From assembly GCA_002753665.1 (NCBI GenBank), contig PEAP01000006.1, positions 5,680 to 69,679 on the forward strand: a DNA stretch of 64,000 nucleotides, given 5' to 3'. The first letter of the stretch is position 1, and each line of letters starts with the position of its first letter. The notes beneath the pieces were generated by a model. That model saw only the letters and a program-made list of their open reading frames with translations. It did not search any database and was not told where the DNA came from. Below, piece by piece: positions 6,662 through 35,648 of this stretch. A program made the position numbers and the translations under genes. Origin of the DNA: Magnetococcales bacterium DC0425bin3. GTDB taxonomy: Bacteria; Pseudomonadota; Magnetococcia; Magnetococcales; DC0425bin3.

Positions 6662-6672
6662 GGTATCCCTGG

Positions 6673-7818: not shown

Positions 7819-7821
7819 GGG

Positions 7822-12438: not shown

Positions 12439-12481
12439 CGTTACCATGCCGATCATCATCACGAAGGGGAGAACCATCATC

Positions 12482-12877: not shown

Positions 12878-12983
12878 GCCCTTCCCGGCAGGATCCGTTC
12901 CGGACCGGGGTCCTGGGACCCCGGTCCGGCGCACCGGTGGTCGGAGAGGGAGGCATCAGCATCGCATGAGAGGGTTTGATCCC

Positions 12984-14162: not shown

Positions 14163-14244
14163 TACCACCCGGAATCCGCCCCCCCCCGGCCCCGCGTGCC
14201 GGGGGGGGGGCGGTCACAGGCTCTCATCGACAGGTTTCTGACCC

Positions 14245-17200
14245 ATGTCCGAGCAACCCAAACAACCCGGGACGCCATCCAATCCCGATCTGGCTCAATA
14301 CTCCCCCCACAAGAATCTGGGAGTGGCGGGCGGCATGGCCAAGGCGTTCATCCACTCGCCCTTGTCGCCATTGTTCCTGTTCGCCTGCTTGGCCATGGGG
14401 TTGATGGGCCTGTTGCTGACCCCGCGCCAGGAGGATCCGCAGATCTCGGTGCCCATGGTGGACATTTTCGTCCGCTATCCCGGCGCCGTCAGCCAGCAGG
14501 TGGCCACGCTGGTGACGGATCCCCTGGAACGGATCATGAGCGAAATCCACGGCGTCAAACATGTCTACTCCGCCTCCATGCGCGGCGAGGCCATGGTGAC
14601 CGTGGAGTTCGACGTGGGCGAGAACCTGGAGGACTCCATCGTCAAGCTGCGGGACAAGATCATGTCCAACATGGACAAGGTCCCGCCCGGGGTGGAAACG
14701 CCCCTGATCAAGCCCATGGCGGTGGACGACGTGCCGATGGTGACCCTCACCCTCTGGTCCCACGATCTCAACGACTCGGAACTGCGGGTGCTGTCCCTGG
14801 ACGTGCTGCAACGCCTGAAGGAAGTGGAGAACACCAGCAAGGGTTTCGTGGTGGGTGGCCGGGCCGAGCAGTTGCGGGTGGACGTGATGCCCGAACGGCT
14901 CTCGGGTTTCAAGATCAGCATGGATCAGATCGCCCAGACCATCAAGACCGCCAACAGCGTCCAGGGCGTCGGCGATGTGGAGTCCGGCGACGTGGGCCGC
15001 AAGGTCTATACCGGCAAATGGCTGCAGAACGCCCAGGATCTGCGCCGGCTGGTGTTGAGTACCCACCAGGGCGTGCCGGTCTACCTGGGGGACGTGGCCA
15101 AGGTGGAATCCGCCCCCGAGGAAACCAGCCAGATGGTCGCCTATTACAGTGGCCCTGCCTATCGGGACAACACCCCCCAGGCCAACGGCGCCCCGGCGGT
15201 GACCATCGCCATCGCCAAGAAGATGGGCAGCAACGGCGTCTCGGTGGCCAACGATCTGCTGGACAAGGTGGAGGAACTCAAGGGCCGTCTGATTCCCAGC
15301 AACGTCTATGTGGCGGTCACCCGCAACTATGGCGAGACCGCCAACGAAAAGGTCAACGAACTGCTCTTCAAGCTGTGCATCGCTACCCTGGCGGTGACCG
15401 TGCTGGTGTGGTTCTTCCTGGGACTGCGGCCGGCGGTGGTCACCCTGATCGTGATTCCCGTGGTGATCCTGATGACGGTGTTCGCCGCCTGGATCATGGG
15501 GTACACCATCGACCGGGTGAGCCTGTTCGCCCTGATCTTTTCCATCGGCATCCTGGTGGACGACGCCATCGTGGTGGTGGAAAACATCTACCGCCGCTGG
15601 CTGCTGGAGGACAACTGCTGCCACATCATCTCCGTGGACGCGGTGCGGGAGGTTGGCAACCCCACCATCCTGGCCACCTTCACGGTCATCGCCGCCCTGC
15701 TGCCCATGGGCTTCGTGCGCGGCATGATGGGTCCCTACATGGAACCGATTCCCGCCCTGGGATCGGTGGCCATGCTGTTCTCCCTGTTCGCCGCCTTCAT
15801 CTTCACCCCCTGGCTCACCCAGTTGATCAAGCCCAGCCTGCGCTCCCTGCATATCCATTCGGAAAAGGAGCATGCCCAGGCGGAGCGCATGGAGCGGTTC
15901 TACCGCTGGATCATTCCCCAGTTGATCCATTCCAAGGCCAAGGGGTTCGGTTTTCTGTTCGGCATGGTCTTCATCTTCTTCCTCTGCATGGTGATGTTCT
16001 ATACCCAGAGCGTGGCGGTGAAGATCATGCCCCTGGACAACAAGCCCGAGTTCAACGTGGTGGTCAACATGTCCGAGGGCACTGCCATGCCCAAGACCGC
16101 CAATCTGGTCCAGCAGCTGACCAACGAACTCCGCAACAAGATTCCGGAGATCATCGCCCTCCAGACCTATGTGGCCACCGCCTCCCCGTTCAACTTCAAC
16201 GGCATGGTGCGTCACTACTATCTGCGGCGCGAGCCCTGGCAGGGTGACATCCAGGTGCAGCTGGTCCACAAGAGCGAGCGGGAGCGGACCAGCCATGAAC
16301 TGGCCATTCTGGCCCGCCATATTCTCACCCCCATCGCCCGACAGGCCGGCGCCCGGATCGAGGTGGTGGAAATGCCCCCGGGACCGCCGGTGCTGCAGTC
16401 GGTGGTGGCCGAGGTGACCGGCCCCACGGCCCAGATCCGCCATCAGGTGGCCCAACAGATGACCCGGTTCTTCGAGGATGCCCACAACATCGTCGATGAG
16501 GACAACTACATCCAGGAACCGTTCGAGGTCTGGCGGTTCGAGGTGGACACCGAAAAAGCCGTGCGGCGGGGCGTTTCGGTGGATGCCATCAACCGCAACC
16601 TGGGGATGGCCATGGGCGGGGCGCGTCTGGGCGACATCAAGCGCGGTCGGGTGCTGGAGCCGACCTACATCGTCATCCAGGTGCCCCTCAACGTGCGCGC
16701 CCAGATCACCAGCCTGGCCGAACTGCCCGTCATGTCCACCACCGGGACCACCATCCCCCTGGGCGAGCTGGGGCGGTTTGTCCGGGAACCCCAGGATCCC
16801 ATCATCTTCCACAAGGATCTGCGCCCGGTGGAATTCGTCACCGGCGAGGTGGAAGGGGTTCTGGACGCTCCCATCTATGGCATGATGGAAGTGGAAAAGA
16901 TGCTGGAGAACTACACCACCCCGGATGGGGTGAAGATGTCCGGCTACTACATGGGGCCGCCGGAAACCACCACCCGCTCCGGCTTCGAGTGGACCGGAGA
17001 ATGGACCGTCACCTACGAAACCTTCCGGGACATGGGCATGGCCTTCGGAGTGGCCCTGATCCTCATCTACATGTTGGTGGTGTGGGAATTCGGCAACTTC
17101 GTCCTGCCGGCCATCATCATGGCCCCCATTCCCCTGACCCTGATGGGCATCATCCCGGGCCATTGGCTGCTGGACGCCAAGTTCACCGCCACTTCCATGA

Positions 17201-18090
17201 TCGGCTTCATCGCCCTGGCCGGGATCATCGTGCGCAATTCCATTCTGCTGGTGGATTTTTCCCAGCAGGAGGTCCTCAAGGGCGTGCCCCTGATGGACGC
17301 GGTGATCATGTCCTGCAAGGCCCGGACCCGGCCCATTCTCATCACCGCCCTGGCCCTGGTGGCCGGGTCGTCGGTGATCCTCTCCGACTTCATCTTCATG
17401 GGCATGGCCATCAGCCTGCTGTTCGGCGTGCTGATCTCCACCCTGCTGACTCTGCTTGTGATTCCCCTGGGCTGCATCAGCGCCAAGAACGCCTTCCGCT
17501 ATCCAACGCGGCAGGAGGCCGAGGAGATGGGCTATCCGGTGGCGCCGGGTGTCCTGGCCGCTCCCGCCATGCCGAGGGACAACGCCTGCAGCGACAGTGC
17601 CTGCGCCGCCCCGGAGATCGAAGAAGCCTCGCCGCCCGCGCCAGCGGCACAGTCGGCCGAGCTCCCGCCGGCACAGTCGGTCGAGCCCTCGCCGGCACAG
17701 TCGGTCGAATCCGTGACCCAGCCGGAACCACCTGCCGGTTCCGCCCTGCCGGAAGCGCCACAGACAGCGCCACCCCAGGCAGAGGTGCGGCAGCCGGACT
17801 CCGATCCCGGTCAGGCCACGCCTCCCGAGCCACCGGCGGCTCCCGCAACCGCCTTGGAATTGCTGGAGGCGGTGCATCAGGCCATTGAGCCTGCCCCGGT
17901 TCTGGAAACCGCCCAACCTGATTCCAGGACAGAGACCGCCTCCCTGGATCAGGACGAGGAAACCCGGGATGACCTCCCGGAACAGATCACCTCCGAGGCC
18001 CCGGCTGGAGGGGACAAAGGCAGCGGCAAAGCCGTCGCTCCCCGCCGGGGCATCCGTCTCAAACCCCCGTCAGGCAAGGGGCCGTCATGA
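14245..18090 (+). CDS. RND (AcrB/HAE-type) efflux transporter with ~200-aa disordered P/A/E/Q-rich C-terminal tail
   Basis: About 1040-aa core with the two-fold 1+5 TM / large periplasmic loop RND architecture. After ...LLVIPLGCISAKNAF (about nt 17500) comes a low-complexity acidic tail ending in a basic patch (KGSGKAVAPRRGIRLKPPSGKGPS). Confidence 0.9.
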   Translation: MSEQPKQPGTPSNPDLAQYSPHKNLGVAGGMAKAFIHSPLSPLFLFACLAMGLMGLLLTPRQEDPQISVPMVDIFVRYPGAVSQQVATLVTDPLERIMSEIHGVKHVYSASMRGEAMVTVEFDVGENLEDSIVKLRDKIMSNMDKVPPGVETPLIKPMAVDDVPMVTLTLWSHDLNDSELRVLSLDVLQRLKEVENTSKGFVVGGRAEQLRVDVMPERLSGFKISMDQIAQTIKTANSVQGVGDVESGDVGRKVYTGKWLQNAQDLRRLVLSTHQGVPVYLGDVAKVESAPEETSQMVAYYSGPAYRDNTPQANGAPAVTIAIAKKMGSNGVSVANDLLDKVEELKGRLIPSNVYVAVTRNYGETANEKVNELLFKLCIATLAVTVLVWFFLGLRPAVVTLIVIPVVILMTVFAAWIMGYTIDRVSLFALIFSIGILVDDAIVVVENIYRRWLLEDNCCHIISVDAVREVGNPTILATFTVIAALLPMGFVRGMMGPYMEPIPALGSVAMLFSLFAAFIFTPWLTQLIKPSLRSLHIHSEKEHAQAERMERFYRWIIPQLIHSKAKGFGFLFGMVFIFFLCMVMFYTQSVAVKIMPLDNKPEFNVVVNMSEGTAMPKTANLVQQLTNELRNKIPEIIALQTYVATASPFNFNGMVRHYYLRREPWQGDIQVQLVHKSERERTSHELAILARHILTPIARQAGARIEVVEMPPGPPVLQSVVAEVTGPTAQIRHQVAQQMTRFFEDAHNIVDEDNYIQEPFEVWRFEVDTEKAVRRGVSVDAINRNLGMAMGGARLGDIKRGRVLEPTYIVIQVPLNVRAQITSLAELPVMSTTGTTIPLGELGRFVREPQDPIIFHKDLRPVEFVTGEVEGVLDAPIYGMMEVEKMLENYTTPDGVKMSGYYMGPPETTTRSGFEWTGEWTVTYETFRDMGMAFGVALILIYMLVVWEFGNFVLPAIIMAPIPLTLMGIIPGHWLLDAKFTATSMIGFIALAGIIVRNSILLVDFSQQEVLKGVPLMDAVIMSCKARTRPILITALALVAGSSVILSDFIFMGMAISLLFGVLISTLLTLLVIPLGCISAKNAFRYPTRQEAEEMGYPVAPGVLAAPAMPRDNACSDSACAAPEIEEASPPAPAAQSAELPPAQSVEPSPAQSVESVTQPEPPAGSALPEAPQTAPPQAEVRQPDSDPGQATPPEPPAAPATALELLEAVHQAIEPAPVLETAQPDSRTETASLDQDEETRDDLPEQITSEAPAGGDKGSGKAVAPRRGIRLKPPSGKGPS
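17647..17718 (+). repeat. 3 x 24-bp in-frame tandem repeat in the RND tail
   Basis: GCACAGTCGGCCGAGCTCCCGCCG / GCACAGTCGGTCGAGCCCTCGCCG / GCACAGTCGGTCGAATCCGTGACC, encoding AQSAELPP-AQSVEPSP-AQSVESVT. Confidence 0.85.
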
Positions 18091-19112
18091 TCACAGCCGC
18101 CATCCGATGGCCCATCCCGGTATCGCCTGCGCTGACTGCCACCGCCCTGGTTCTGACTCTGGGGTTGGGAGTCTCCGCCCAGGCCTTCGAGGGCAACTCT
18201 CCCCAGGAGTGGAACCCCGGATTCAGCGGAGCCAATGGCCCGGAACAGACCCCCATGCCGCCCGGCGGCCCCGGCGAGGGGTTTTCCGGACCCGGCGCCC
18301 CCTCCGGCGGATCCTACGGTCCGCCTGCCGAGGGCATCGCACCCGGCGGCGGACCGCCCGGTCAGGAGCCGATGTCGGGCCATGACCGTCCGCCAGTCGA
18401 TCATTGGAGCGGTTCCGGTGGCCCGCAGCCCTCCGGACCTTCCGGCTCTCCCTACCGGTGGGACAACCCGCCCCCGGGCATGGGATCGGATTGGACTCCC
18501 GGCGCCGAGTCACCCGGCGATGGCAGGCCCGCACCGACCGATGGGGTCACCGCTCCAAAAGGTTACCCAGACCCCCGCGGCCCCTATTCCGATGGCAATG
18601 CAGCCCCACCCTATCAGGGACCGATGGGCTATCCGGGCCAAATGCCCCAGATGCCATGGACGCGGCAGTCCCCCTGGAACGGACCGGCCCCCCATCCCGG
18701 CGCCATGGGCAACATGCCGGATCCCGGCGCCGGTGCGTGGGGCGGCCCCCCCACCCAACAGGCTCCCGAGGGCGCCGGGCGTGGCTATTATCCACCCCAG
18801 CAGGGTGGCGGACCGCCCACCGGCACCTACCCGCCGCAGATGGTTCCTTATCAGGGGGGCGGTATGGGATCCTATGGACCGCCCAGCCAGGGCAATTATG
18901 GCGGTGGACCTCCACTGGGCGGTGGGGGACGACCCCAGCCGTCCTCTCAGCCCCCCCCGTGGAATGGCGGCAACTGGCAGTCCCAGCCGCCGCCGTCGCC
19001 ACCCATGGGTGGCGGCTATCCACCATGGTCCACCCCCCCTGCCTATCAAGGTCGTTCTCCGGCGGACCAGGGCAGTCAGACAGGTCCCGGCTATCGGCAG
19101 CCCGGGTATTGA
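18087..19112 (+). CDS. secreted P/G-rich intrinsically disordered protein (341 aa)
   Basis: ATG overlaps the RND stop (ATGA at 18087-18090). Signal peptide ...LVLTLGLGVSAQA|FE. The rest is almost entirely P/G/S/Q/Y/W low complexity with no recognisable domain. Confidence 0.7.
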   Translation: MITAAIRWPIPVSPALTATALVLTLGLGVSAQAFEGNSPQEWNPGFSGANGPEQTPMPPGGPGEGFSGPGAPSGGSYGPPAEGIAPGGGPPGQEPMSGHDRPPVDHWSGSGGPQPSGPSGSPYRWDNPPPGMGSDWTPGAESPGDGRPAPTDGVTAPKGYPDPRGPYSDGNAAPPYQGPMGYPGQMPQMPWTRQSPWNGPAPHPGAMGNMPDPGAGAWGGPPTQQAPEGAGRGYYPPQQGGGPPTGTYPPQMVPYQGGGMGSYGPPSQGNYGGGPPLGGGGRPQPSSQPPPWNGGNWQSQPPPSPPMGGGYPPWSTPPAYQGRSPADQGSQTGPGYRQPGY

Positions 19113-19119
19113 GTCAACG

Positions 19120-19150
19120 GGCCGGGGCCATGGGCTCCGGCCCCTCTTTT
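19120..19150 (+). terminator. rho-independent terminator after the P/G-rich gene
   Basis: GGCCGGGGCC / GGCTCCGGCC stem (one G-U pair), 3-nt loop, followed by CCTCTTTT. Confidence 0.6.
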
Positions 19151-19312
19151 CGGCCCGGCTGTTATCGTGCCAGCCGCGCGCCAGTCGCGCTTCGGGCCTT
19201 CGAGAAACGCGGGGGAGGTATATAAACCTCCCCCCCCCAGGAAGGTTGACGCAGGACTGTTCTGGAACGCCCAGCGCATTCCAGGCAGGATTCGGGATTG
19301 GTGGAAGCCAAG

Positions 19313-19993
19313 ATGGCATTGTCCAGTTGCATGCACCTTCATTGTGCCCTGTTCCTCGGGATGCTCCTGACCGGAAACGCGGTGCATGCCGCTGTCATGG
19401 AGCCCGCTGCCGGCCCCGGGCCGGTCCTGCCCCTGCTGCTTGCCCAGAATGGTGGGACCAACGATCATCTGTGGAACTGGTATGGCGACAATTATTCCCG
19501 TCAGCCAGCGCCAGTCACCCCGCAGGAACAGGCCCTTCCCTCCTATGGGACTCCGTTCCGTCCCAGTGGCAAAATCCCTGCCGGCGATCAGACCCGACCC
19601 TGGGGTGAGGTGCCGCCCGACTATCAACCCAATCCCTATTACGGAGACCAGCGGCGGCCCTCGGACAGCGGAGCAGACAACCGCAACCGTTTCGACTCCC
19701 GTCCGCGTCCCGACCCGCGGTATTCCGAGGAACGCTTCCGGTCCATGAACCCGCCCCCGGGCCAGTACTCCGACTTCGACCCCCCCGCTCCACCGTCCTC
19801 CGGCTCCGAACGGGGCACCGACGATTATTTTCGCCGACGCCAGGTTGAGGAACAACCCTTGCATGCCCCGCCGCCACCCGGCAATGGCTATCCCGCCACA
19901 GTGCCCTGGGGATACCGCCCTCCCGACAGTTATGACTCGTGGTCGTCCGAGGGTCAGCCCTTCTGGGGCACCCCCTCTTATTGGTCCAGATAG
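19313..19993 (+). CDS. secreted P/R/D/Y-rich low-complexity protein (226 aa)
   Basis: Signal peptide MALSSCMHLHCALFLGMLLTGNAVHA. Mature part is rich in P, R, D, Y and W (e.g. DYQPNPYYGDQRRPSDSG..., ...GYRPPDSYDSWSSEGQPFWGTPSYWSR). TTG 19298 is an alternative start. Confidence 0.6.
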   Translation: MALSSCMHLHCALFLGMLLTGNAVHAAVMEPAAGPGPVLPLLLAQNGGTNDHLWNWYGDNYSRQPAPVTPQEQALPSYGTPFRPSGKIPAGDQTRPWGEVPPDYQPNPYYGDQRRPSDSGADNRNRFDSRPRPDPRYSEERFRSMNPPPGQYSDFDPPAPPSSGSERGTDDYFRRRQVEEQPLHAPPPPGNGYPATVPWGYRPPDSYDSWSSEGQPFWGTPSYWSR

Positions 19994-20001
19994 GAAGGTT
20001 C

Positions 20002-20661
20002 ATGGCTGCATCCGCGGGATTCAATCTCGAACGGGCATGGAAGCTTGGCGCCGCCACCCTGATCCTTCTGGCCGGAATCCCGGTCAGCCTGCCCGTTCCG
20101 GCCCGGGGAGACCAACAGCAGCCGGCCTTTTCCGCCCGGGTGGTCCGCAGCCATCCCTCGGATCGGGAGAAGAACTCCCAGGGCCACATGTATGTGGGAC
20201 CCCTGGGCATCCGCACCGAATCCACCGTGGGCGGTGAGGCCATTCATGTCATCTTTCAACGCCAACCGCCGAAGGCTCTGGTCCTGTTTCCGTCCCGCAA
20301 GGAGTACATGGAACAACCCGGAGCCGACAGCACCCCGCCGCCGCTCCCCGACCATCCGGACAGCCCCTGCCGCACCCATGATTCCTACCGCTGCCTCAAA
20401 AAGGGCCTGACCACCGTGGGCGGCCGTGACACCGAACATTGGGTGGTGACGGTCATCCCGCCCGGCGAGAAACCCCGGGATTCCCAGATGTGGATCGACC
20501 GTCGTCTGGGCATTGCCATTCGGGAAGCCTATCCGGACGGCTCTCTCGTGGAGCTGACCGACATCCGGGAGGCTCCCCAGGACCGGCAACTCTTCACCCT
20601 GCCGGAGGGGTATCGCCTGGTCACCCTGCCGGAGTCCGGCGCTCCTCCCGCGCCACCCTGA
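20002..20661 (+). CDS. hypothetical exported globular protein (possibly LolA-like/DUF4412-like fold)
   Basis: AGGAAGG RBS before ATG 20002. Signal-like N-terminus ...LGAATLILLAGIPVSLPVPARG. The beta-rich, non-repetitive mature part is the only ordinary-composition exported protein in this block. The fold assignment is a guess. Confidence 0.5.
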   Translation: MAASAGFNLERAWKLGAATLILLAGIPVSLPVPARGDQQQPAFSARVVRSHPSDREKNSQGHMYVGPLGIRTESTVGGEAIHVIFQRQPPKALVLFPSRKEYMEQPGADSTPPPLPDHPDSPCRTHDSYRCLKKGLTTVGGRDTEHWVVTVIPPGEKPRDSQMWIDRRLGIAIREAYPDGSLVELTDIREAPQDRQLFTLPEGYRLVTLPESGAPPAPP

Positions 20662-20673
20662 CCCGCCGCGTGA

Positions 20674-20744
20674 TTTCGATGGGTGGGGGAAGCCTCCCTC
20701 CTCCCTCCACCGATGCAAGTCGCAGTGCGACTTGCATCGGTAAC
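20674..20744 (+). repeat. two-hairpin ~70-bp repeat, full copy A
   Basis: TTTCGATGGGTGGGGGAAGCCTCCCTCCTCCCTCCACCGATGCAAGTCGC-AGT-GCGACTTGCATCGGTAAC, immediately after the stop of the 20002..20661 gene. Confidence 0.85.
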
Positions 20745-21154
20745 ATGACGACAACAATCGCCCGCCCCTGGCCCTCAGTTTGTAACATACCGGTCCGCCA
20801 GTGAGGGGAATTTTACATTAAACATCTTGTTATAGCGTGCCTTCTGCTCCAAAATGGCGTTTAACGTCCTCCCGTGAATACCTGCGGCAGCCACGTTGGT
20901 TTCGCGGTCCATCGGTGTCCGCGGTTGACCCCTGCGACCCGGACCCCAGACAGGGAGTTGTCGCGAGGGGTATCGAAGCACCATGGGTCTCCTTGTGCGG
21001 AATCCATCAGGTGTGATAAGAGGGCTTGAACCTGGAAAAAATGGATGGCTCCAGGGCAGGAGGGCAAACCATGGATGCCGCCAAGTCACATCGGCTCGGC
21101 ACGGTGGCGGAGGGGATCTTCCCAGCCACGAGGGTTTCCTGGCAGCAGCCACGC

Positions 21155-21763
21155 ATGAACGTGCGACGTTTCGGACACATCGTCTCCCTCGGCACCTTGG
21201 TCACAATGACCGGTTGGTCTTGCCATGCGACGGCGGGGGAGCCTTGGCAACAAACCATGGAGGCCGCCCAGCGGGCCGCTGCGAAACAGGGCTTGAGCGG
21301 CGATTCCCAGATGGGCCAACGCTTCGGACGTTTCATGAAGTCCTTCATGGACGAAATGGAATCCACCGACCCCGGAGTCGGCCACCCCCCCGGGAATCCG
21401 GAGGTGCCTCCAGGAATGCCGGACAATCGACCCCGTACCGAGGCCCGCCGGGCCCCCGAAGGGATATCCGGCCCCGCACGGATCCCGCAACCGCTTCCGC
21501 CCGGGCCGGGATACTGGGAGCCCACCCCCTGGGACAGCTCCCCCGGCCTTTGGGGTCCTGGAGGATGGAGTGCCTACGATTCCCCCGGCCGTCCCTATGC
21601 CGGAGCGGAAGGATATGGGTGGGGCGGTTCAGCCTACCGGGTTCCAAACCAGGGCTGGCCCGCCTGGAGCCCGTCGGGGTCCTGGGGCAATTATCGGGAT
21701 CCGCTGTTCGACAGCCCCGCGGGGCTGGGAACGGGTTGGGTTCCCCAGGGGTGGGATTGGTGA
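21155..21763 (+). CDS. secreted W/P/G-rich low-complexity protein (202 aa)
   Basis: Signal-like MNVRRFGHIVSLGTLVTMTGWSCHATA. C-terminal half is GYWEPTPWDSSPGLWGPGGWSAYDSPGRPYAGAEGYGWGGSAYRVPNQGWPAWSPSGSWGNY...GWVPQGWDW. The start is uncertain (ORF opens at 21026). Confidence 0.55.
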   Translation: MNVRRFGHIVSLGTLVTMTGWSCHATAGEPWQQTMEAAQRAAAKQGLSGDSQMGQRFGRFMKSFMDEMESTDPGVGHPPGNPEVPPGMPDNRPRTEARRAPEGISGPARIPQPLPPGPGYWEPTPWDSSPGLWGPGGWSAYDSPGRPYAGAEGYGWGGSAYRVPNQGWPAWSPSGSWGNYRDPLFDSPAGLGTGWVPQGWDW

Positions 21764-21908
21764 ACACCGGAACCCACATGGACTGTTCCGGGTTGGCGGT
21801 GTGGGAGGAGACCATTCTGCTGCCTCCCGCAAGGGATGATATACGGCCCTCAGTCTGATTTCAGCTATTAGATCAACCTTTTTTTAAGGAAAGCCAGAGG
21901 AGATCGAT

Positions 21909-22172
21909 ATGAAAAAGACCGCGCGCTTGTTGGCCATTGCCGCCCTTCTGGGCACTGCCATGACCCTCGCCGCCCCCGCGGATGCCTGGTGGGGACCCGG
22001 CTGGGGCAATGGCAACGGTTGGGGCAATGGCACCTTCAGCATGAACATGGGTGGCTGGGGCAATGGCTATGGCAATGGCTACGGCTATCCCGGCTACGGC
22101 GGCTGGGGCGGACCCGGCTATGGCGGCTGGGGCGGACCCGGCTACGGCGGTTGGGGCGGACCCTGGTGGTGA
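21909..22172 (+). CDS. small secreted G/W/Y-repeat protein 1 (87 aa), sulfur-globule-envelope-protein-like composition
   Basis: GAGGAG RBS. Sec signal MKKTARLLAIAALLGTAMTLAAPADA. Mature WWGPGWGNGNGWGNG...GYGGWGGPGYGGWGGPGYGGWGGPWW. Confidence 0.8.
   Translation: MKKTARLLAIAALLGTAMTLAAPADAWWGPGWGNGNGWGNGTFSMNMGGWGNGYGNGYGYPGYGGWGGPGYGGWGGPGYGGWGGPWW
22092..22163 (+). repeat. 3 x 24-bp coding tandem repeat (GYGGWGGP unit)
   Basis: GGCTA(C/T)GGCGG(C/T)TGGGGCGGACCC x3. The same unit recurs in the two downstream paralogs. Confidence 0.9.
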
Positions 22173-22236
22173 CGGTTGACCACCGCAATTCGTGCCATCC
22201 TCCTTTTTATCTGCAATGACGACGGAGATACAGAAA

Positions 22237-22506
22237 ATGAAAAAGTCCCTCGGTGTTCTCGCCATCGCGGCCCTGCTGGGTGGAGCCGCCATCCTCGCGA
22301 CCAATGACGCCTCCGCCTGGTGGGGACCCGGTTGGGGCAACGGCAACGGTTGGGGCAACGGCAACCTGAGCTTCAGCATGGGTGGCTGGGGCAACGGCTG
22401 GGGCAATGGCTACGGCTATCCCGGCTACGGCGGTTGGGGCGGACCCGGCTACGGCGGCTGGGGCGGACCCGGCTACGGCGGCTGGGGTGGTCCCTGGGGT
22501 TGGTAG
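22237..22506 (+). CDS. small secreted G/W/Y-repeat protein 2 (89 aa)
   Basis: GGAGA RBS. Signal MKKSLGVLAIAALLGGAAILATNDASA. Mature region is nearly identical in layout to paralog 1. Confidence 0.8.
   Translation: MKKSLGVLAIAALLGGAAILATNDASAWWGPGWGNGNGWGNGNLSFSMGGWGNGWGNGYGYPGYGGWGGPGYGGWGGPGYGGWGGPWGW
22423..22494 (+). repeat. 3 x 24-bp coding tandem repeat (GYGGWGGP unit)
   Basis: Same unit as 22092-22163. Confidence 0.9.
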
Positions 22507-22516
22507 TCAAACAGGC

Positions 22517-22538
22517 AGGGGGGGCTCACGCCCCCCTT
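22517..22538 (+). terminator. short G/C hairpin after paralog 2
   Basis: GGGGGG-CTCACG-CCCCCC followed by TT only. Weak U-tract. Confidence 0.3.
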
Positions 22539-22642
22539 GACTGCAATGCCAACTGGCATGGTTGGGGGAATTGTCTCCCACCCGCGTGCCGCACCCACTT
22601 CCGGCAACGGCTGCGTGCGGCAACTGCGCAAAGGGTTTCAAC

Positions 22643-23020
22643 ATGAAAAAGACGCTCGGCATGCTGGCCATCGCCACCCTTTTGGGTGGTGCAGCCATGG
22701 TGACCTCGAATGAAGCTTCGGCCTGGTGGGGCGGTGGTCCCGGCTACTGGGGCGGACCCGGCTACGGCGGTTGGGGCGGACCCGGCTACGGCGGTTGGGG
22801 TGGCGGGCCTGGCTACGGCGGTTGGGGCGGACCCGGCTACGGCGGTTGGGGTGGCGGGCCTGGCTATTGGGGCGGCGGTGGTGGCCCCTATGGCTATGGC
22901 GGCGGACCCTATGGCTATGGCGGCGGGCCTGGCTACTGGGGCGGTGGTGGACCCAACGGCGCTCCTCCAGCGACGGCTCCCACCGGGGAGAAAGAAACCA
23001 AAACCGACTCCGGTAATTGA
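22643..23020 (+). CDS. small secreted G/W/Y-repeat protein 3 (125 aa) with charged C-terminal tail
   Basis: Signal MKKTLGMLAIATLLGGAAMVTSNEASA. Mature WWGGGPGYWGGPGYGGWGGPGYGGWGGGPGYGGWGG...GGGPYGYGGGPYGYGGGPGYWGGGG, then NGAPPATAPTGEKETKTDSGN. Confidence 0.8.
   Translation: MKKTLGMLAIATLLGGAAMVTSNEASAWWGGGPGYWGGPGYGGWGGPGYGGWGGGPGYGGWGGPGYGGWGGGPGYWGGGGGPYGYGGGPYGYGGGPGYWGGGGPNGAPPATAPTGEKETKTDSGN
22742..22940 (+). repeat. array of 18/24/27-bp coding repeats (GYWGGP / GYGGWGGP / GYGGWGGGP / GPYGYGG units)
   Basis: Direct reading of 22742-22861 shows alternating 24- and 27-bp units. More degenerate units follow. Confidence 0.8.
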
Positions 23021-23040
23021 TCCTTCGGGGCATTGATGCG

Positions 23041-23070
23041 GGGGGGCGGTTGCGGCCGCCTCCCGTTTTG
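23041..23070 (+). terminator. rho-independent terminator after the G/W/Y gene triplet
   Basis: GGGGGGCGG / CCGCCTCCC stem (one G-U pair), loop TTGCGG, then GTTTTG. Confidence 0.65.
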
Positions 23071-23090
23071 CCTATCCTCTTTCCATAGGA

Positions 23091-23136
23091 CCGATGAACG
23101 TCGTGTCGCGACGTGCATCGGTGGAGGGTGAAGGGT
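23091..23136 (-). repeat. two-hairpin repeat, degenerate partial copy B
   Basis: CCGATGAACGTCG-TGTC-GCGACGTGCATCGGTGGAGGGTGAAGGG. The hairpin-2 module plus GGTGGAGGG is retained. The GGAGGCCTCC module is lost. Confidence 0.6.
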
Positions 23137-23235
23137 GTTTGAGCCAATCCAGCCTGGCCAGTCCCGGTTTCCGGACCCGGTGCCATGGTTTGGAAACCGC
23201 CGGCCTTACCGGCATCCCGGTTGGAACCACATGCC

Positions 23236-23904
23236 ATGATTACCCTGATCGGCAACCTGAAAGGCGGTTGCGGCAAAAGCACCGTGACCTTCAATCTGGC
23301 GGTTTGGCTGGCCAAGCGGAAGCGGCAGGTGGTTACCTTCGATCTGGATCCCCAGGCCACCCTGAGCGATGTGGTGGATGTGCGCCGGGAAGAGGGTGTG
23401 ACTCCCGCCATCACCGTGTTTCGCCCGGAAAGCGACCCCGGCAAGGTCTTCAAGGAACATTCCGCGGGCGAGGTTCTGGTGGATGTCGGCGCTTCCAACC
23501 TCTGGGCCATGCGGCAGGCCATCGCCATGGCCGACCGGGTGTTGATTCCGGTGCCGCCCAGTCAGGCGGATGTCTGGTCCACCCAGCGGTTCCTGAACAT
23601 CGTCGAGGAAACCGTCGCCGGCAAGAAACGCCCCGAGACCCTGGTCTTCGTCAACCGTGCCGATACCCACCCGGGATTGACGGAATCCGACGAAACCGAA
23701 CAGGCCCTGGCCGCCCTGTCCGGGGTGGCGATCCTGGACGCCCGTATTTCCCAAAGAACCATCTACCGCCGTTCCTTCAGCGAGGGCCGGGCTGTCTTCG
23801 AACTGTCCCCCTCCAGCAAGGCCGCGGAAGAGTTCATCAATCTGGCCAAGGCCCTGTATCCGGACCTGGCCCAGCCCGCCAAAAGCGGCAACAAGAAAAA
23901 GTGA
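23236..23904 (+). CDS. orphan ParA/MinD-family P-loop ATPase
   Basis: Deviant Walker A GNLKGGCGKST, then FDLDPQ and VLVDVG motifs. 222 aa with a short basic C-terminal tail (AKSGNKKK). No parB, parS or min genes nearby. Confidence 0.85.
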   Translation: MITLIGNLKGGCGKSTVTFNLAVWLAKRKRQVVTFDLDPQATLSDVVDVRREEGVTPAITVFRPESDPGKVFKEHSAGEVLVDVGASNLWAMRQAIAMADRVLIPVPPSQADVWSTQRFLNIVEETVAGKKRPETLVFVNRADTHPGLTESDETEQALAALSGVAILDARISQRTIYRRSFSEGRAVFELSPSSKAAEEFINLAKALYPDLAQPAKSGNKKK

Positions 23905-23919
23905 GGGAGAATACGGCCC

Positions 23920-24612
23920 ATGACCGATCGACCGGTTCAACATCCCGGCGCGGATGCCGACGGTGGCGGAAACCCGTCCTCCCCCATGCCCCAGCGCGGC
24001 GTCAACATCATCCCGCCCGTCGGCACCCACAAGGAGTGCGGCAACTGCTCGGCCATGGTGCTGGACCAGTTCGCCAAGAGTTTCGACAAAAGCGCCCGCC
24101 GCTGGGAACTGGTGGTCTACCCGTCCCTGTTCGCCTTCATCATCCTGGCCATGTACGGATTTTTCCTGATCTACAGCCTCACCCAGGACATCCGGATCAT
24201 GTCCCACTCCATCGACCCGCAGATGGGGCGCAACATGGGCTCGTTGTCTTCCAACATCGGCAGTTTGTCCAACAATATCGAGTTGATGTCCAATTATCTC
24301 GAATATATCAGCGACAACATGGAAACCATGTCGGTGGACATGCAGACCATGGCCGAGAACATCGATACCATGACCGACAGCGTTTCCGGCATGAGCGGCA
24401 ATGTCAAGCAGATGGCCGGCACCATGACCGAAATGTCCGGGCGGGTCAGTGAAATGGCCGTCAAGCTTGATACCCTGGGACCCATGACCGCCAACGTGGC
24501 CATCATGTCCCAGGCCATGCGCGTCATCACCGGGTCCATGAACCGCATGGGATACGACATGAACAACGCGGCCCGGCCCATGAGCTTCATCAACCGGTTC
24601 ATGCCCTGGTAG
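23920..24612 (+). CDS. bitopic membrane protein with periplasmic Met-rich 18-heptad coiled coil ('methionine zipper')
   Basis: N-terminal ~65 aa carry an ECGNC (CxxC) motif and a K/R cluster. One TM follows (VVYPSLFAFIILAMYGFFLIYSL). From residue 102 there are 18 uninterrupted 7-residue repeats beginning M (L/I/V in a few). Ends ...RFMPW. Confidence 0.7.
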   Translation: MTDRPVQHPGADADGGGNPSSPMPQRGVNIIPPVGTHKECGNCSAMVLDQFAKSFDKSARRWELVVYPSLFAFIILAMYGFFLIYSLTQDIRIMSHSIDPQMGRNMGSLSSNIGSLSNNIELMSNYLEYISDNMETMSVDMQTMAENIDTMTDSVSGMSGNVKQMAGTMTEMSGRVSEMAVKLDTLGPMTANVAIMSQAMRVITGSMNRMGYDMNNAARPMSFINRFMPW

Positions 24613-24675
24613 TCGGCCACATGGCCAGTCCGGTTTCTGTGAATATTGTTTGATTCCGATCACGGGAGAAAATTG

Positions 24676-25392
24676 ATGTCCGCGACACGCAAAACCAGTT
24701 CCATCCTCTCCGCCGCCGTCCTGACCCTGGCCATGACCTTTTCCGCCGCCGCCATGGCCGAGGACAAGGCCGCCACCGTCCCGGTCACGCCGCCCACCAG
24801 CCCCCAGGATCTGCAAGAACGCATCCAGGACCGGGTCGGCAATTACTGGCAGAGCATCCAGAGCAGCCACGATGCCTGGCAGCGCCAGCATACCCTCGGA
24901 CAGACCGCCACCGAGCGGGACCGGGAAACCGGTCAGTCGGCCCGGGAAATGGCCGAACAGACCCGCATGCTGGATTGGCAGAACCAGCAGCAGGCCTGGA
25001 CCAACGCCGCCCAGCAGCTCCAGAACACCCAGCAGCGCCAGCAGGAGAACAATCTGAAACTCCAGGAAGCCCTGATGGCCTACCGCCACGAACAGGAGCG
25101 CATCAACCTGGAACATCGCAAGGCGATGGTGAGCAACACCACCGCCTACCAGCAGGGCAGCCTCAACAACGCCGTCATGCGCCGTCAGAATAATCTGATG
25201 ACCAGCACCTCCGCGGTCAACAACGATCTGTGGGCCAGCCGGCAGGCCATGATGAACCACATGGCCCGTCAGCGCGCCTGGCTGCAGCAGCGCACCGGCG
25301 CTCCCGTGAACGAAGCCATTCTGCCTCCCGTCGCTCCCGGCAGTGAACCCGCGGCCCCTCCGGCGGCGGAAGCAGCCAAGCCGGCGCAATAA
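24676..25392 (+). CDS. secreted Q/N-rich helical protein (238 aa)
   Basis: GGGAGA RBS. Signal MSATRKTSSILSAAVLTLAMTFSAAAMA. Mature part is Q/N/R/E-rich and helix-prone (WQNQQQAWTNAAQQLQNTQQRQQENNLKLQEAL...), with a P/A tail. Confidence 0.65.
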   Translation: MSATRKTSSILSAAVLTLAMTFSAAAMAEDKAATVPVTPPTSPQDLQERIQDRVGNYWQSIQSSHDAWQRQHTLGQTATERDRETGQSAREMAEQTRMLDWQNQQQAWTNAAQQLQNTQQRQQENNLKLQEALMAYRHEQERINLEHRKAMVSNTTAYQQGSLNNAVMRRQNNLMTSTSAVNNDLWASRQAMMNHMARQRAWLQQRTGAPVNEAILPPVAPGSEPAAPPAAEAAKPAQ

Positions 25393-25393
25393 C

Positions 25394-25462
25394 TTTGATG
25401 GATGGGGGAGGCCTCCCTCCACCCTCCACCGATGGAAGTCGCGCAGCGACTTCCATCGGTAA
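25394..25462 (+). repeat. two-hairpin ~70-bp repeat, full copy C (closest to consensus)
   Basis: TTTGATGGATGGGGGAGGCCTCCCTCCACCCTCCACCGATGGAAGTCGC-GCA-GCGACTTCCATCGGTAA, starting 2 nt after the stop of the Q-rich gene. Confidence 0.9.
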
Positions 25463-25473
25463 ATGATTCGAAC

Positions 25474-25515
25474 TTCTGATGGATGGGGGAGGCCTCCCTC
25501 CACCTTCCATCGGTG
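25474..25515 (+). repeat. two-hairpin repeat, copy D with hairpin 2 collapsed
   Basis: TTCTGATGGATGGGGGAGGCCTCCCTCCACC-TTCCATCGGTGA. The left arm and loop of hairpin 2 are deleted. Confidence 0.75.
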
Positions 25516-25539
25516 AGCGAGTCGTCCAGATCGAATCCA

Positions 25540-25569
25540 GGGCGGATTGCCATGCAATCCGCCCTTTTT
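25540..25569 (+). terminator. strong rho-independent terminator closing the + strand block
   Basis: 11-bp perfect stem GGGCGGATTGC / GCAATCCGCCC, loop CAT, then TTTTT. Confidence 0.8.
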
Positions 25570-25621
25570 CATTGGGGGATATCCCCACCACACCCGGCCA
25601 GGCGATCGCCCGCCGGGACGG

Positions 25622-26566
25622 TCAATGGGCGGGTACGAAGCCTTGCGCGACCAGGATGGCCTGGGCCTCGGGATCCAGGGTCCAGTCCAGGAAAGTCTTC
25701 AGGTCGCCCTGGGGTTGGCCCAGGGTGTAGAGATACAGGGGATGGATCAAGGGATAGGAACGGTCCCGGATCCGCTCCGGGGTGGGGGTGATACAGGCCT
25801 CTCCGGATTGTTCCGCCAGGCACACCGCCCGCACCCCGGAAGTGAGGGAGGACAGGGAAACATAACCGATGGCGCAAGGATCCTCCGCCACCCGGTTCAC
25901 CAGGCCCGGATCATCCCGGGTGAAAGTCAGGCGTCGGGACATGTCTGCGAGATGCGCGCCGAACAGCCGGGCGCGGAAGATGCCATAAATCCCCGCCTTG
26001 GTGGTGCGGCTCAGCGGATGGATCTGTTGCGCCATGCAGCCGGGCAGGGGATTGTCCAGGGCGGTCCAGCGGGCGATGCGCCGGTGTTTTCGGTAGATGC
26101 CGGCCAACTGATCCAGATCCAGGGCCTGGATGCCATTGTCCCGGTGAACGATCACCGCCACCGCATCCCATCCCACCACCTGACCCTGGGGCTTGGCAAA
26201 GCCGCTGGCCACCGCCAATTGGGCTTCCCACTCCTGCATGGTGCGGGAGGTGGCGGCGACATGGCCATGGCCGTTGATCAGGGCCGCAATCCCCTTGACC
26301 GAGCCCCCCCCCTGAATATGCAGGCCGATGTCGGGATGACGTTCGTGGAAGGGCTTGACCCAGGCCTCCAACACCGGCTTCAGGGTTTCGGACCCCCGGA
26401 TCCACAGGGCGGTGTCCTCCTCCCCCAGGGCCCATGCCGACCCACAGCCGCTCATCCAGGTCAGGATCGCCACCAGCCATGCCTTACCGTGGAAGTCGCG
26501 TTGCGACTTCCATCGGTGGAGGGTGGCGGGAGGCTTCCCCCATCCATCAAAGTTACAGGTTCCCAT
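25622..26566 (-). CDS. PstS-family (phosphate-binding-protein-like) periplasmic lipoprotein, orphan
   Basis: PBP-fold sequence (...IRGSETLKPVLEAWVKPFHERHPDIGLHIQGGGSVKGIAALINGHGHVAATSR...). Lipobox-like LTWMSGC. No pstCAB nearby. The only usable in-frame starts (ATG 26566 or TTG 26578) lie upstream of repeat copy E, which is read through in frame. Confidence 0.65.
   Translation of the reverse strand: MGTCNFDGWGKPPATLHRWKSQRDFHGKAWLVAILTWMSGCGSAWALGEEDTALWIRGSETLKPVLEAWVKPFHERHPDIGLHIQGGGSVKGIAALINGHGHVAATSRTMQEWEAQLAVASGFAKPQGQVVGWDAVAVIVHRDNGIQALDLDQLAGIYRKHRRIARWTALDNPLPGCMAQQIHPLSRTTKAGIYGIFRARLFGAHLADMSRRLTFTRDDPGLVNRVAEDPCAIGYVSLSSLTSGVRAVCLAEQSGEACITPTPERIRDRSYPLIHPLYLYTLGQPQGDLKTFLDWTLDPEAQAILVAQGFVPAH
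26484..26553 (-). repeat. two-hairpin ~70-bp repeat, full copy E, inside the 5' end of the PstS-like ORF
   Basis: Plus strand reads TTACCGTGGAAGTCGC-GTT-GCGACTTCCATCGGTGGAGGGTGGCGGGAGGCTTCCCCCATCCATCAAAGT. Confidence 0.85.
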
Positions 26567-26671
26567 TCGGTCGCTCAATCTCACTCTCCTCCGCTGCCAC
26601 CAATCTGACCGATTTGGCAACCACAGTTCAAGAGGTGTTCATGCACCCTGGTCAGGGGATGTTCGCCGCCC

Positions 26672-35493: not shown

Positions 35494-35498
35494 GAGCA

Positions 35499-35527
35499 AG
35501 CCTGCCGCGCCCAGGGCGCGGCAGGCT
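35499..35527 (+). terminator. 13-bp GC hairpin after the secretin gene
   Basis: AGCCTGCCGCGCC-CAG-GGCGCGGCAGGCT. The T-run (35547-35552) is ~20 nt downstream, so this is not a canonical intrinsic terminator. Confidence 0.45.
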
Positions 35528-35648
35528 CTGCAGAGAATTTATTGGGTTTTTTCGCTACGGATGGGTATGATGCCAGAGTGGGAAATTCCTCTTTTCATCC
35601 GTCACTGATCTCCGGGCTGGGACTTCCGGACAAGGCTGTGTGGATGCC

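Follow-up and report, generated by a model that had tools for sequence, protein, structure and literature searches.

A block of ten plus-strand genes in Magnetococcales bacterium DC0425bin3 is one half of an undescribed gene cluster, comprising an efflux-type pump, exported low-complexity proteins, a ParA ATPase and a methionine-rich membrane protein, that is shared by magnetotactic cocci and purple or colourless sulfur bacteria. The reading that the evidence favours, although it is inferred and held only tentatively, is a system for building, loading and positioning periplasmic sulfur globules; no paper found describes it. The block lies within a window of 64,000 nucleotides (GCA_002753665.1, contig PEAP01000006.1, positions 5,680–69,679), to which all coordinates refer.

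A block of exported low-complexity proteins

The observation behind the original prediction, ten consecutive genes encoding compositionally extreme, mostly exported products and a ParA, was confirmed. All ten ORFs are present, and the GenBank record of the same organism (GCA_015233965.1, contig JADFWZ010000016.1) calls nine of them at the same coordinates, the exception being g4. Eight products have an N-terminal basic/hydrophobic/AxA-type signal-peptide pattern (judged by eye and with a crude script rather than with SignalP), g9 is bitopic with one transmembrane helix, and ParA alone is cytoplasmic. A lack of profile matches other than to ParA had been named in advance as support for novelty: Pfam and NCBIfam recognise only ParA above threshold, with sub-threshold matches to DUF4412 for g3, DUF948 for g9 and SGP for g5, and none of the products carries a recognisable catalytic domain, as had been claimed.

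The first two genes encode proline-rich exported proteins. g1 (18087–19112; 341 aa, 23% Pro and 22% Gly, N-terminus signal-peptide-like) starts within the stop codon of the upstream RND gene, the two overlapping as ATGA at 18087–18090. It has no sequence homologs, but one or two exported P/G/R-rich ORFs occupy the same position in 22 of 24 loci, often with the same ATGA overlap, including a 325-aa ORF in cultured Magnetococcus marinus MC-1. g2 (19313–19993; 226 aa, Pro/Arg/Asp/Tyr-rich) gave only one weak positional hit, in L004 (L numbers denote loci of the comparison described below), although positional analogs exist in most loci. The low-complexity ORFs are not artefacts of high GC content, since the same series is present in MC-1, whose locus is 55% GC.

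g3 (20002–20661) encodes an exported globular protein with two invariant cysteines, DUF4412-like and probably of a LolA/RseB-like fold, with 24–46% identical orthologs at the same position in 28 loci. The window protein scores 17.7 bits on DUF4412 against a cut-off of 21.6, whereas the Allochromatium vinosum and Sedimenticola orthologs pass at 24.6 and 23.2 bits, and the A. vinosum ortholog also hits the MucB_RseB N-terminal domain at E = 8e-4. g4 (about 21155–21763, the start being uncertain between 21026 and 21155) encodes an exported Trp/Pro/Gly-rich protein, with weak hits at the expected position in seven Magnetococcales loci and a conserved GQ.FG.FM..F motif shared with the 278-aa MC-1 gene in the same position.

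Three exported G/W/Y mini-proteins follow, each 32–37% Gly with 6–11% Trp and about 7% Tyr: g5 (21909–22172; 87 aa), g6 (22237–22506; 89 aa), a recent tandem duplicate of g5 (188 nt at 90% identity), and g7 (22643–23020; 125 aa), a G/Y/W/P repeat protein with internal repeats of 24 nt, whose signal peptide and N-terminus are 56–76% identical to the second G/W gene of other Magnetococcales. These are divergent relatives of the sulfur globule protein family, although none reaches the Pfam SGP cut-off of 26.7 bits (g5 scores 17.5 bits, E = 0.0075; g6 and g7 gave no hit). Against an HMM of gammaproteobacterial SGP-like proteins, g5 scored above all 300 composition-preserving shuffles (z = 4.0), with z = 3.1 for g6 and z = 2.4, not significant on its own, for g7. 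SGP was the only Pfam family hit recurrently by the 43 G/W/Y proteins examined (5 of 43). A Thiogranum protein encoded just upstream of g3 and g9 (L073) passes the SGP cut-off at 46 bits, and an HMM of 39 Magnetococcales proteins scores it at 74 bits, against 40 ± 4.5 for shuffles (z = 7.6). G/Y SGP-like genes also lie next to g9 in L043, L045 and L050.

The ParA gene (23236–23904) encodes a small ParA/MinD-type ATPase (type Ib, ParF-like), with Pfam CbiA and AAA_31 above cut-off, NCBIfam ParA_partition at 138 bits (cut-off 180), and ParF and TP228 ParA as nearest solved relatives. g9 (23920–24612) has a disordered N-tail, a highly conserved transmembrane helix, a Met-rich heptad coiled coil and a conserved C-terminal RPMSF.N.FMPW motif. 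It is 11% Met overall and 16% Met in its C-terminal domain, where Met and hydrophobic residues show heptad periodicity (autocorrelation 0.3–0.43 at lags 7, 14 and 21). Invariant residues concentrate in and around the transmembrane helix, and an AF2 model gives a predicted helix at residues 43–151, with pLDDT above 90 at the transmembrane segment. g10 (24676–25392) encodes an exported Gln-rich (12%) helical protein, with a homolog only in L002, the closest relative (53–54% identity); it is a lineage-specific accessory rather than a core member.

The expected terminator-like hairpin closes the block (25539–25565, a 12-bp stem followed by TTTTTCATT), but two more strong hairpins lie inside it, at 19119–19143 after g1 (11-bp stem with 10 G-C pairs, followed by a T run) and at 23041–23064 after g7 (10-bp stem with 8 G-C pairs), so that the block is probably three or four transcription units and not one operon. 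The palindromic repeat of roughly 70 bp, which had been taken to bound the block, is real (20675–20743, 23090–23151, 25394–25462, 25477–25515 and 26490–26556), but further copies at about 41.46, 50.18, 50.24 and 56.06 kb show it to be dispersed through the window; it is a genome-wide element and does not delimit the block.

Conservation of the cluster and its upstream pump

Conservation of gene neighbourhoods, on which the original prediction had been staked, was examined by tblastn synteny, and held across 80 loci. The order adaptor, RND pump, one or two exported P/G/R-rich proteins, DUF4412-like protein, two or three exported G/W/N(Y) mini-proteins in Magnetococcales, ParA and g9 is conserved from Magnetococcales to Chromatiaceae. 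The same nine genes, in the same order, occur in MC-1, where g9 is Mmc1_3257, and the order recurs in about 35 other Magnetococcales. A reduced core is found in A. vinosum (adaptor, RND, P-rich protein, DUF4412-like protein, ParA and g9), in Thiohalocapsa marina, there without the DUF4412-like gene, and in Sedimenticola and other sulfur-oxidising Gammaproteobacteria. ParA lies directly upstream of g9 in 33 of 38 Magnetococcales loci and in seven gammaproteobacterial loci, and also in MC-1, T. marina and a Nitrospirae-labelled MAG, although most gammaproteobacterial g9 genes stand alone, without pump or ParA.

Two protein searches with g9 returned 466 and 966 homologs, with 506 GTDB species loci and 616 clusters at 50% identity (E ≤ 1e-10). 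The taxa include Magnetococcales, Chromatiaceae (Allochromatium, Thiohalocapsa, Halochromatium), Beggiatoaceae (Marithrix, Albibeggiatoa), Ca. Venteria, Sedimenticola, Thiogranum and Thiotrichales, the taxonomic argument resting on the best 80 of the 506 loci and on the best 120 hits of each protein search. Magnetococcales are reverse-Dsr sulfur oxidisers and many carry sulfur globules (PMC6783814; bioRxiv 10.64898/2025.12.17.695019).

The conserved unit does not begin at the RND stop codon, as had been supposed, but includes the adaptor and RND genes (12966–18090, also on the plus strand) as core members. The adaptor (12966–14162) is a periplasmic membrane fusion protein (Pfam HlyD_D23 and HlyD_3; NCBIfam RND_mfp at 170 bits against a cut-off of 94.9), co-conserved with the pump in Magnetococcales and Gammaproteobacteria. 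The permease body (14245–17469) is a divergent AcrB-like pump (Pfam ACR_tran at 467 bits) that falls below every NCBIfam subfamily cut-off; its best solved relative is 6vej (E = 1e-60), and it is 73–80% identical in Magnetococcales and 60–65% in Gammaproteobacteria, in the same position. A small cytoplasmic protein encoded upstream of the adaptor (12479–12877, plus strand; 132 aa from the second Met), with no Pfam or NCBIfam family, is a possible member of the pump operon: homologs at 69–72% identity lie directly upstream of the adaptor/RND genes in L035 and in the same place in L034, where that operon is inverted relative to ParA-g9 yet remains next to it.

The pump ends in a disordered Pro/Ala/Glu-rich cytoplasmic tail of about 200 aa (17470–18090), which has no family hit, ranges from 86 to 314 aa among relatives, and is not conserved in sequence apart from a terminal RRGIRLK motif (18043–18063, confirmed by translation). 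This motif is invariant in 28 loci (RRGIRLR in one) while its codons vary synonymously. It is present in 28 of 28 loci that have ParA and absent in 4 of 4 that lack it (L004, L042, L043 and L050). ParA, which had been described as an orphan, is therefore not one, and the motif is a candidate ParA-docking or ParA-activating peptide.

A possible sulfur-globule system and its alternatives

The interpretation originally offered was partly supported: the block is indeed a co-conserved set of exported, compositionally extreme proteins with ParA and the Met-heptad protein, and, of the three roles suggested (a sulfur-globule envelope, an adhesive or biomineral-templating surface layer, or a phase-separating scaffold), the first is the one favoured, given the SGP resemblance beyond composition, the bona fide SGP gene in the Thiogranum cluster, and the occurrence of g9 in sulfur-storing sulfur oxidisers. 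What the analysis demonstrates is confined to the conserved gene order, the resemblance to SGP and the co-variation of RRGIRLK with ParA; the functional model that follows is inference. In this view, g5 to g7, and probably g1, g2 and g4, would be structural proteins of the globule envelope or matrix. The pump and adaptor would take a hydrophobic sulfur species (S8 or a polysulfane made at the periplasmic face of the membrane) and pass it to the growing globule, with the LolA-like g3 perhaps acting as periplasmic carrier. g9, anchored by its transmembrane helix and possibly bound to the pump, would extend a Met-lined coiled coil into the periplasm to tether or wet the globule. ParA, sitting on the nucleoid, would bind the basic motif at the end of the pump's tail, and/or the disordered N-tail of g9, thereby spacing these membrane complexes and their attached globules along the cell so that they are distributed and inherited evenly. 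Known partners of ParA/MinD ATPases act through a charged, disordered terminal peptide (PMC10241942). ParF and TP228 ParA work in that way.

Several findings weigh against this model. No expression, proteomic or localisation data tie any of these genes to sulfur globules, and such data were not available here. The window holds no dsr, sox or sqr genes. Ca. Magnetaquicoccus inordinatus UR-1 carries the cluster (L032), yet no globules were seen in its micrographs (PMC6783814). RND pumps normally need an outer-membrane channel, and none was seen among the neighbours scanned. The known A. vinosum globule proteins SgpA to SgpD are encoded elsewhere, and the P-rich protein in the A. vinosum cluster is not SgpD.

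The strongest alternative, although unlikely, is a hydrophobe or lipid export and envelope-remodelling system not specific to sulfur, in which pump, adaptor and LolA-like g3 would move a lipid or other hydrophobic molecule, as HpnN and the Mla and Lol systems do, the low-complexity proteins would form a periplasmic or cell-surface matrix, and ParA would distribute the machinery. The AcrB-like pump with its adaptor, the DUF4412/RseB-like g3, the lack of a sulfur enzyme nearby and the absence of visible globules in UR-1 are consistent with this. However, the known range of g9 is sulfur-storing sulfur oxidisers from two distant lineages, SGP-like genes are embedded in or adjacent to the cluster, and a general envelope function would be expected in many more taxa.

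It is improbable that the cluster serves another membrane-bounded inclusion with a topologically periplasmic lumen, such as acidocalcisome-like polyphosphate granules or carbonate inclusions. Magnetotactic cocci commonly carry large polyphosphate inclusions, and FCR-1, which has the cluster (L036), is reported with them (bioRxiv 10.64898/2025.12.17.695019). Large sulfur bacteria also store polyphosphate, and a PstS-like gene lies next to the block on the other strand. Yet the only family resemblance of the structural proteins is to sulfur globule proteins, polyphosphate granules are cytoplasmic in most bacteria, and the PstS-like neighbour is not conserved next to the cluster in other loci.

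It is also very unlikely that the genes are neighbours by descent only, with ParA-g9 a separate module, for example for positioning a membrane receptor array. Terminator-like hairpins do split the block, ParA-g9 occurs without the pump within 10 kb in the Nitrospirae-labelled MAG and in several Magnetococcales loci, and sources often label g9 as a methyl-accepting chemotaxis protein. Against this, the pump tail motif co-varies with ParA, the cluster is kept across two distant lineages and survives an inversion, and g9 has no MCP signalling domain.

Least likely is a copper or silver (soft metal) efflux and buffering system, with g9 and the pump acting like Cus and the low-complexity proteins as periplasmic metal sponges: Met-rich motifs bind Cu(I) and Ag(I) in CusF, CusB and PcoC, the g9 C-terminal domain is Met-rich and the adaptor gives a partial match to the CzcB/NccB family (113 bits), but the taxonomic range is too narrow for metal resistance, no CusF or CopA-type gene lies nearby, the pump scores higher on multidrug-type than on CusA/CzcA-type models (417 against 247 bits, passing neither cut-off), and the Met residues of g9 follow a heptad pattern typical of a coiled-coil core or stripe, not MxxM-type metal sites.

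Gene content and conservation of the cluster

ORF listing and codon-position GC show ten + strand genes between 18087 and 25392, so the original prediction of a ten-gene block was borne out, as were the compositions it described: g1 is 23% Pro and 22% Gly, g5 to g7 (the G/W/Y proteins) are 32–37% Gly with Trp and Tyr, g9 is Met-rich and g10 is 12% Gln. Nine of the ten genes are annotated at the same coordinates in GenBank (GCA_015233965.1, contig JADFWZ010000016.1), the exception being g4, at about 21155–21763, which has positional homologs in other Magnetococcales, including MC-1. A 795-codon antisense ORF spanning ParA, g9 and g10 (23206–25593, − strand) is a high-GC artefact, as codon-position GC favours the + strand genes. 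The N-termini of g1 to g7 and g10 have a basic residue, a hydrophobic core and an A.A-type site, although this was judged by heuristic only. Profile searches, proposed beforehand as a test of novelty, bore the prediction out in that Pfam and NCBIfam recognise only ParA above threshold, with sub-threshold hits to DUF4412 for g3, DUF948 for g9 and SGP for g5.

The RND stop and the g1 start overlap as ATGA, and terminator-like hairpins follow g1, g7 and g10, so the block is probably several transcription units. The repeats of roughly 70 bp, proposed to bound the block, are real but dispersed through the window in both orientations (20675–20743, 23090–23151, 25394–25462, 25477–25515, 26490–26556, 41461–41489, 50175–50203, 50244–50272 and 56062–56090); this palindromic intergenic family (core GGGAGGCCTCCCTCCACCCTCCACCGATG plus a hairpin) looks like a REP or MITE-type element, and Rfam returned no match anywhere in the window. 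Directly downstream on the − strand (25622–29327) lie a PstS-like binding protein, a 392-aa protein with a weak ATP-grasp hit and an MFS_1_like transporter, which are not conserved next to the cluster in other loci. The rest of the window is housekeeping genes plus a large polysaccharide biosynthesis cluster (38395–63419), which holds two asparagine synthase paralogs, a sugar transferase, a Wzt-type ABC ATPase, a Wzy_C/DUF5935 protein, glycosyltransferases, a UDP-GlcNAc 2-epimerase and a second ParA/AAA_31-like protein at 45781–46821. No dsr, sox or mam genes were found in the window.

The membrane protein g9 is the best handle on the cluster. It has hundreds of homologs, those at 55–69% identity being nearly all from Magnetococcales and those around 40% from Gammaproteobacteria, and at 50% identity clustering the family has 616 clusters at E ≤ 1e-10. 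A scan of one genome per GTDB species found 506 loci, the best 80 of which are 38 Magnetococcales plus Chromatiaceae, Beggiatoaceae (Marithrix, Albibeggiatoa), Ca. Venteria, Sedimenticola thiotaurini, Thiogranum, Thiotrichales and ‘Ectothiorhodospiraceae’ MAGs; a second search, from a Chromatiaceae homolog, reached Allochromatium vinosum, A. palmeri, Thiohalocapsa marina and Halochromatium.

Whether the genes co-occur in relatives had been named in advance as a condition on which the prediction could fail, and tblastn of all the window proteins against these loci showed that a core of them does. In Magnetococcales the order is RND, g3, ParA, g9 at fixed spacing, and in several Gammaproteobacteria it is adaptor, RND, g3, ParA, g9. 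Cultured Magnetococcus marinus MC-1 (CP000471.1:4,044,526-4,055,138) has the same nine genes in the same order in a locus of 55% GC, g9 there being Mmc1_3257. A. vinosum (locus L082; GCA_016584135.1, contig NRSL01000002.1, bases 383–8197) has adaptor, RND, an exported P/R-rich protein, a DUF4412 protein, ParA and g9, and T. marina has the same set without the DUF4412 gene. Where the pump operon is inverted it still abuts ParA-g9, and it keeps with it the small upstream gene (12479–12877), which encodes a 132-aa cytoplasmic protein with no family hit and travels with the pump operon in loci L034 and L035. The synteny may extend further: a secretin (with STN and SPOR domains) and a large FecR-domain protein lie about 8 kb downstream of the block (33076–38363), and in MC-1 (locus L084, 10970–20678) a secretin and a 2454-aa FecR/cadherin-like protein lie directly downstream of g9.

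The low-complexity genes cannot be followed by sequence, but they can be followed by position. In 22/24 loci one or two exported P/G/R-rich ORFs lie between the pump and g3, often overlapping the pump's stop codon, and g4 has weak positional homologs in seven loci. The exported P-rich proteins of the gammaproteobacterial clusters (L082 5564–6049; L086 8279–9034; L072 5728–6192) share a short motif (YRFRGD... then RFRPLT.RE), and may therefore form a real family despite their low complexity. Nearly every Magnetococcales locus has two or three exported G/W/N(Y) proteins just upstream of ParA, sharing the pattern SAWWGPGWGNN...GNFGFNMGGD...GPGGWGW, whereas g10 is found only in the closest relative.

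Resemblance of the G/W/Y proteins to sulfur globule proteins

The G/W/Y proteins are of 87–125 aa, with MKK...A.A signal-peptide-like N-termini and 13–18% Trp plus Tyr, and in these respects have the character of small, Sec-exported proteins with Gly/aromatic repeats. All three genes carry 24-nt internal repeats (8-residue GPGYGGWG), and g5 and g6 share 188 nt at 90% identity (21984–22171 and 22315–22502), indicating a recent tandem duplication. A homolog search with g6 was uninformative, giving only 7 weak hits because of the composition correction. Against Pfam SGP (PF17228, gathering cut-off 26.7 bits) the window's proteins fall short, g5 scoring 17.5 bits and g6 and g7 giving no hit. SGP is nevertheless the only Pfam family hit recurrently by the 43 related G/W/Y proteins (5/43 at E ≤ 0.1), of which only one passes: a bona fide SGP member at 46.2 bits, encoded just upstream of g3 and g9 in a Thiogranum MAG (locus L073). 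In three other Gammaproteobacteria a G/Y SGP-like gene lies next to g9.

The similarity is order-specific, beyond composition. An HMM of the 39 Magnetococcales proteins scores the Thiogranum SGP at 74 bits, against 40 ± 4.5 for 300 shuffles (z = 7.6), and in the reverse test, with an HMM of gammaproteobacterial SGP-like proteins, g5 lies above all 300 shuffles (z = 4.0), with g6 at z = 3.1 and g7 at z = 2.4, which is weak. Location on the envelope of sulfur globules, as examined for SgpD by globule proteomics or fluorescent fusions (PMC10386293), was not measured here. Magnetococcales are reverse-Dsr sulfur oxidisers that often contain sulfur globules, and the gammaproteobacterial hosts named here are classic sulfur storers. 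Because sgpD is reported to lie next to a hydrophobe/amphiphile exporter gene (PMC10386293), the P-rich protein of the A. vinosum cluster was considered as a candidate SgpD, but this was rejected: the published sgpD terminator sequence is absent from L082 and the protein does not fit. The A. vinosum cluster was not mapped to Alvin_ locus tags, nor was its expression under sulfide examined (for the transcriptome, see PMC3754752). A link to magnetosomes was likewise rejected, because the cluster is present in non-magnetotactic Chromatiaceae and lies outside any mam genes.

ParA, the pump tail and other components

The ATPase carries a deviant Walker A with the signature lysine (GNLKGGCGKST) and scores above the Pfam cut-offs for CbiA (55.9 bits) and AAA_31 (48.3 bits), but at 138 bits it does not reach equivalog level for partition ParA (NCBIfam NF041546, cut-off 180), and no ParB-like gene is adjacent. 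Its nearest solved relatives are ParF and TP228 ParA. The original prediction called it an orphan; it is not. The RND pump has a cytoplasmic C-terminal tail of 86–314 residues whose sequence is not conserved, but which ends in RRGIRLK (RRGIRLR in one locus), 1 to 17 residues before the stop. The motif's codons vary freely at synonymous sites, so selection acts on the peptide and not on an RNA signal. All 28 loci with the motif have ParA, while the four RND genes without it, one from Magnetococcales and three from related Gammaproteobacteria, have none; these counts are not phylogenetically independent, but at least two lineages are involved. In Chromatiaceae (L082 and L086) the pump tail holds an extra hydrophobic segment (for example LGNILMMVFYAIRGLFLLLFDLIK) between helix 12 and the disordered linker, which may be a thirteenth helix or an amphipathic anchor.

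ParA/MinD partners characteristically act through a charged, disordered terminal peptide (PMC10241942). ParA is also almost always directly upstream of g9, including in a MAG with no pump within 10 kb, and g9 has a disordered N-tail. Both the pump tail and g9 are therefore candidate partners, and with neither binding nor docking examined the observations do not settle on a cognate partner. A shared RG[ILV] motif in the g9 N-tail was sought but is not consistent: Magnetococcales share a P[IV][IV]P.G...EC..C segment that Gammaproteobacteria lack. Neither g9 nor g10 fits the description of McdB-type partners (soluble, disordered, with an N-terminal charged peptide and an invariant C-terminal Trp), since g9 ends in Trp in most homologs but has a transmembrane helix, and g10 is Gln-rich but is exported and not conserved.

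Basic residues precede the single transmembrane helix of g9, so that its C-terminal domain is probably periplasmic, an orientation inferred from the positive-inside rule. In that domain Met and hydrophobic residues recur every seven positions. AF2 with 16 homologs gives a disordered tail at 1–42 and only long helices after it, and no fold search was run. Residues that never vary cluster in and beside the helix and in a C-terminal RPMSF.N.FMPW motif; such conservation in a membrane anchor suggests, by inference, a specific partner inside the membrane, possibly the pump. The DUF948 score of g9 (27.7 bits) is below the Pfam cut-off of 37.2.

The exported protein g3 has two invariant cysteines and a clear ortholog set. 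Its DUF4412 membership is left undecided by the scores, the window protein reaching 17.7 bits against a cut-off of 21.6, while the A. vinosum and Sedimenticola orthologs pass at 24.6 and 23.2 bits and one ortholog touches the RseB N-domain. This suggests a LolA-like binder of hydrophobic ligands, although the fold was not confirmed: AF2 without an alignment gave pLDDT 37, and a PDB profile search with 18 g3 orthologs found nothing.

The pump is AcrB-like, with ACR_tran scoring 467 bits over residues 32–1075 across 12 helices and the adaptor gene directly upstream, but it belongs to no named subfamily by score (417, 333 and 247 bits for the multidrug RND_permease_1, the multidrug RND_permease_2 and CusA/CzcA, against cut-offs of 1250, 1250 and 701). 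None of the neighbouring products scanned carries an OEP/TolC-type domain, although an outer-membrane factor may be encoded elsewhere. A loop in the adaptor, considered as Met-rich, is conserved but only modestly Met-rich, and was not pursued.

Proposed function and comparison with known systems

The interpretation offered with the original prediction was partly supported: the set of exported proteins is co-conserved, but the cluster reaches upstream to include the pump, and ParA has candidate partners. In the mechanism proposed here, the exported low-complexity proteins would form the globule envelope or matrix; the pump, its adaptor and g3 would deliver hydrophobic sulfur; g9 would tether the globule to the membrane; and ParA, acting through the pump tail and/or g9, would space the complexes along the nucleoid. 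What the data demonstrate extends to the conservation, the SGP resemblance and the co-variation of motif and ParA, and no further, every functional step being inference. Alternatives are a non-sulfur hydrophobe export system, another inclusion, metal handling, and unrelated neighbouring modules.

In its boldest form, which is considered unlikely, a nucleoid-bound ParA ATPase would position an organelle lying outside the cytoplasm, gripping the cytoplasmic tail of a dedicated RND pump together with a Met-rich transmembrane tether, and through them would space and partition protein-coated periplasmic sulfur globules which the pump itself loads with hydrophobic sulfur. On this reading the cluster is the long-missing biogenesis and inheritance machinery of bacterial sulfur globules, shared by Chromatiaceae, large sulfur bacteria and magnetotactic cocci.

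Sulfur globules are a classic bacterial inclusion, yet only four envelope proteins are known, all from one family of purple bacteria, and nothing is known about how sulfur reaches the globule or how globules are nucleated, spaced and inherited. The cluster offers candidates for each step, in organisms that can be grown and in part manipulated (A. vinosum, where periplasmic mCherry fusions already work (PMC10386293), and M. marinus MC-1); it would supply the first candidate sulfur globule proteins in Magnetococcales, and would extend ParA/MinD positioning to a membrane pump and to a compartment across the membrane. The conserved exported low-complexity proteins may also interest work on bacterial condensates and biomineral templating. 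In the literature searched, no paper mentions Mmc1_3249 to Mmc1_3257 or links sulfur globules with ParA, RND, DUF948 or DUF4412. The cluster is conserved and undescribed, with a testable short linear motif (RRGIRLK).

Set against known systems, g9 gives a weak hit to DUF948 (YoxC/YtxH-like) and is sometimes called YoxC in source annotations, but has its own conserved TM and C-terminal motifs; neither DUF948 nor DUF4412 has a known function. As in RND pumps with small membrane partners and lipid-handling RND systems (AcrAB-AcrZ, HpnN), an AcrB-like permease is paired with an adaptor, and the adjacent bitopic protein has an unusually conserved transmembrane helix, as expected of a pump-bound subunit. 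The pump differs, however, in its cytoplasmic tail of 86–314 aa with a terminal motif and in having no outer-membrane factor seen nearby, and g9, whose binding to the pump has not been tested, carries a 140-residue Met-rich coiled coil.

Like sulfur globule proteins, the G/W/Y proteins are small, Sec-exported, repetitive and Gly/aromatic-rich and, like SgpD, begin with Trp in their mature form (PMC10386293). They are rich in Trp and Asn rather than Tyr, however, and are clustered with a pump, ParA and g9, whereas the A. vinosum sgp genes are described as separate transcription units (PMC10386293); they also occur in Magnetococcales, where no sgp genes have been reported in the papers searched. 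As in the ParA/MinD cargo-positioning systems (McdAB for carboxysomes, ParC and PpfA for chemoreceptor arrays, ParF-ParG of plasmid TP228), a small ParA with a deviant Walker A (KGGCGKS) is encoded next to its presumed cargo genes, and the candidate partner offers a basic motif at the end of a disordered segment. There is no ParB, centromere or McdB-like gene; the candidate partner peptide is at the C-terminus of a 12-helix RND pump, and/or on a bitopic membrane protein, rather than at the N-terminus of a soluble adaptor, and the presumed cargo lies on the other side of the cytoplasmic membrane.
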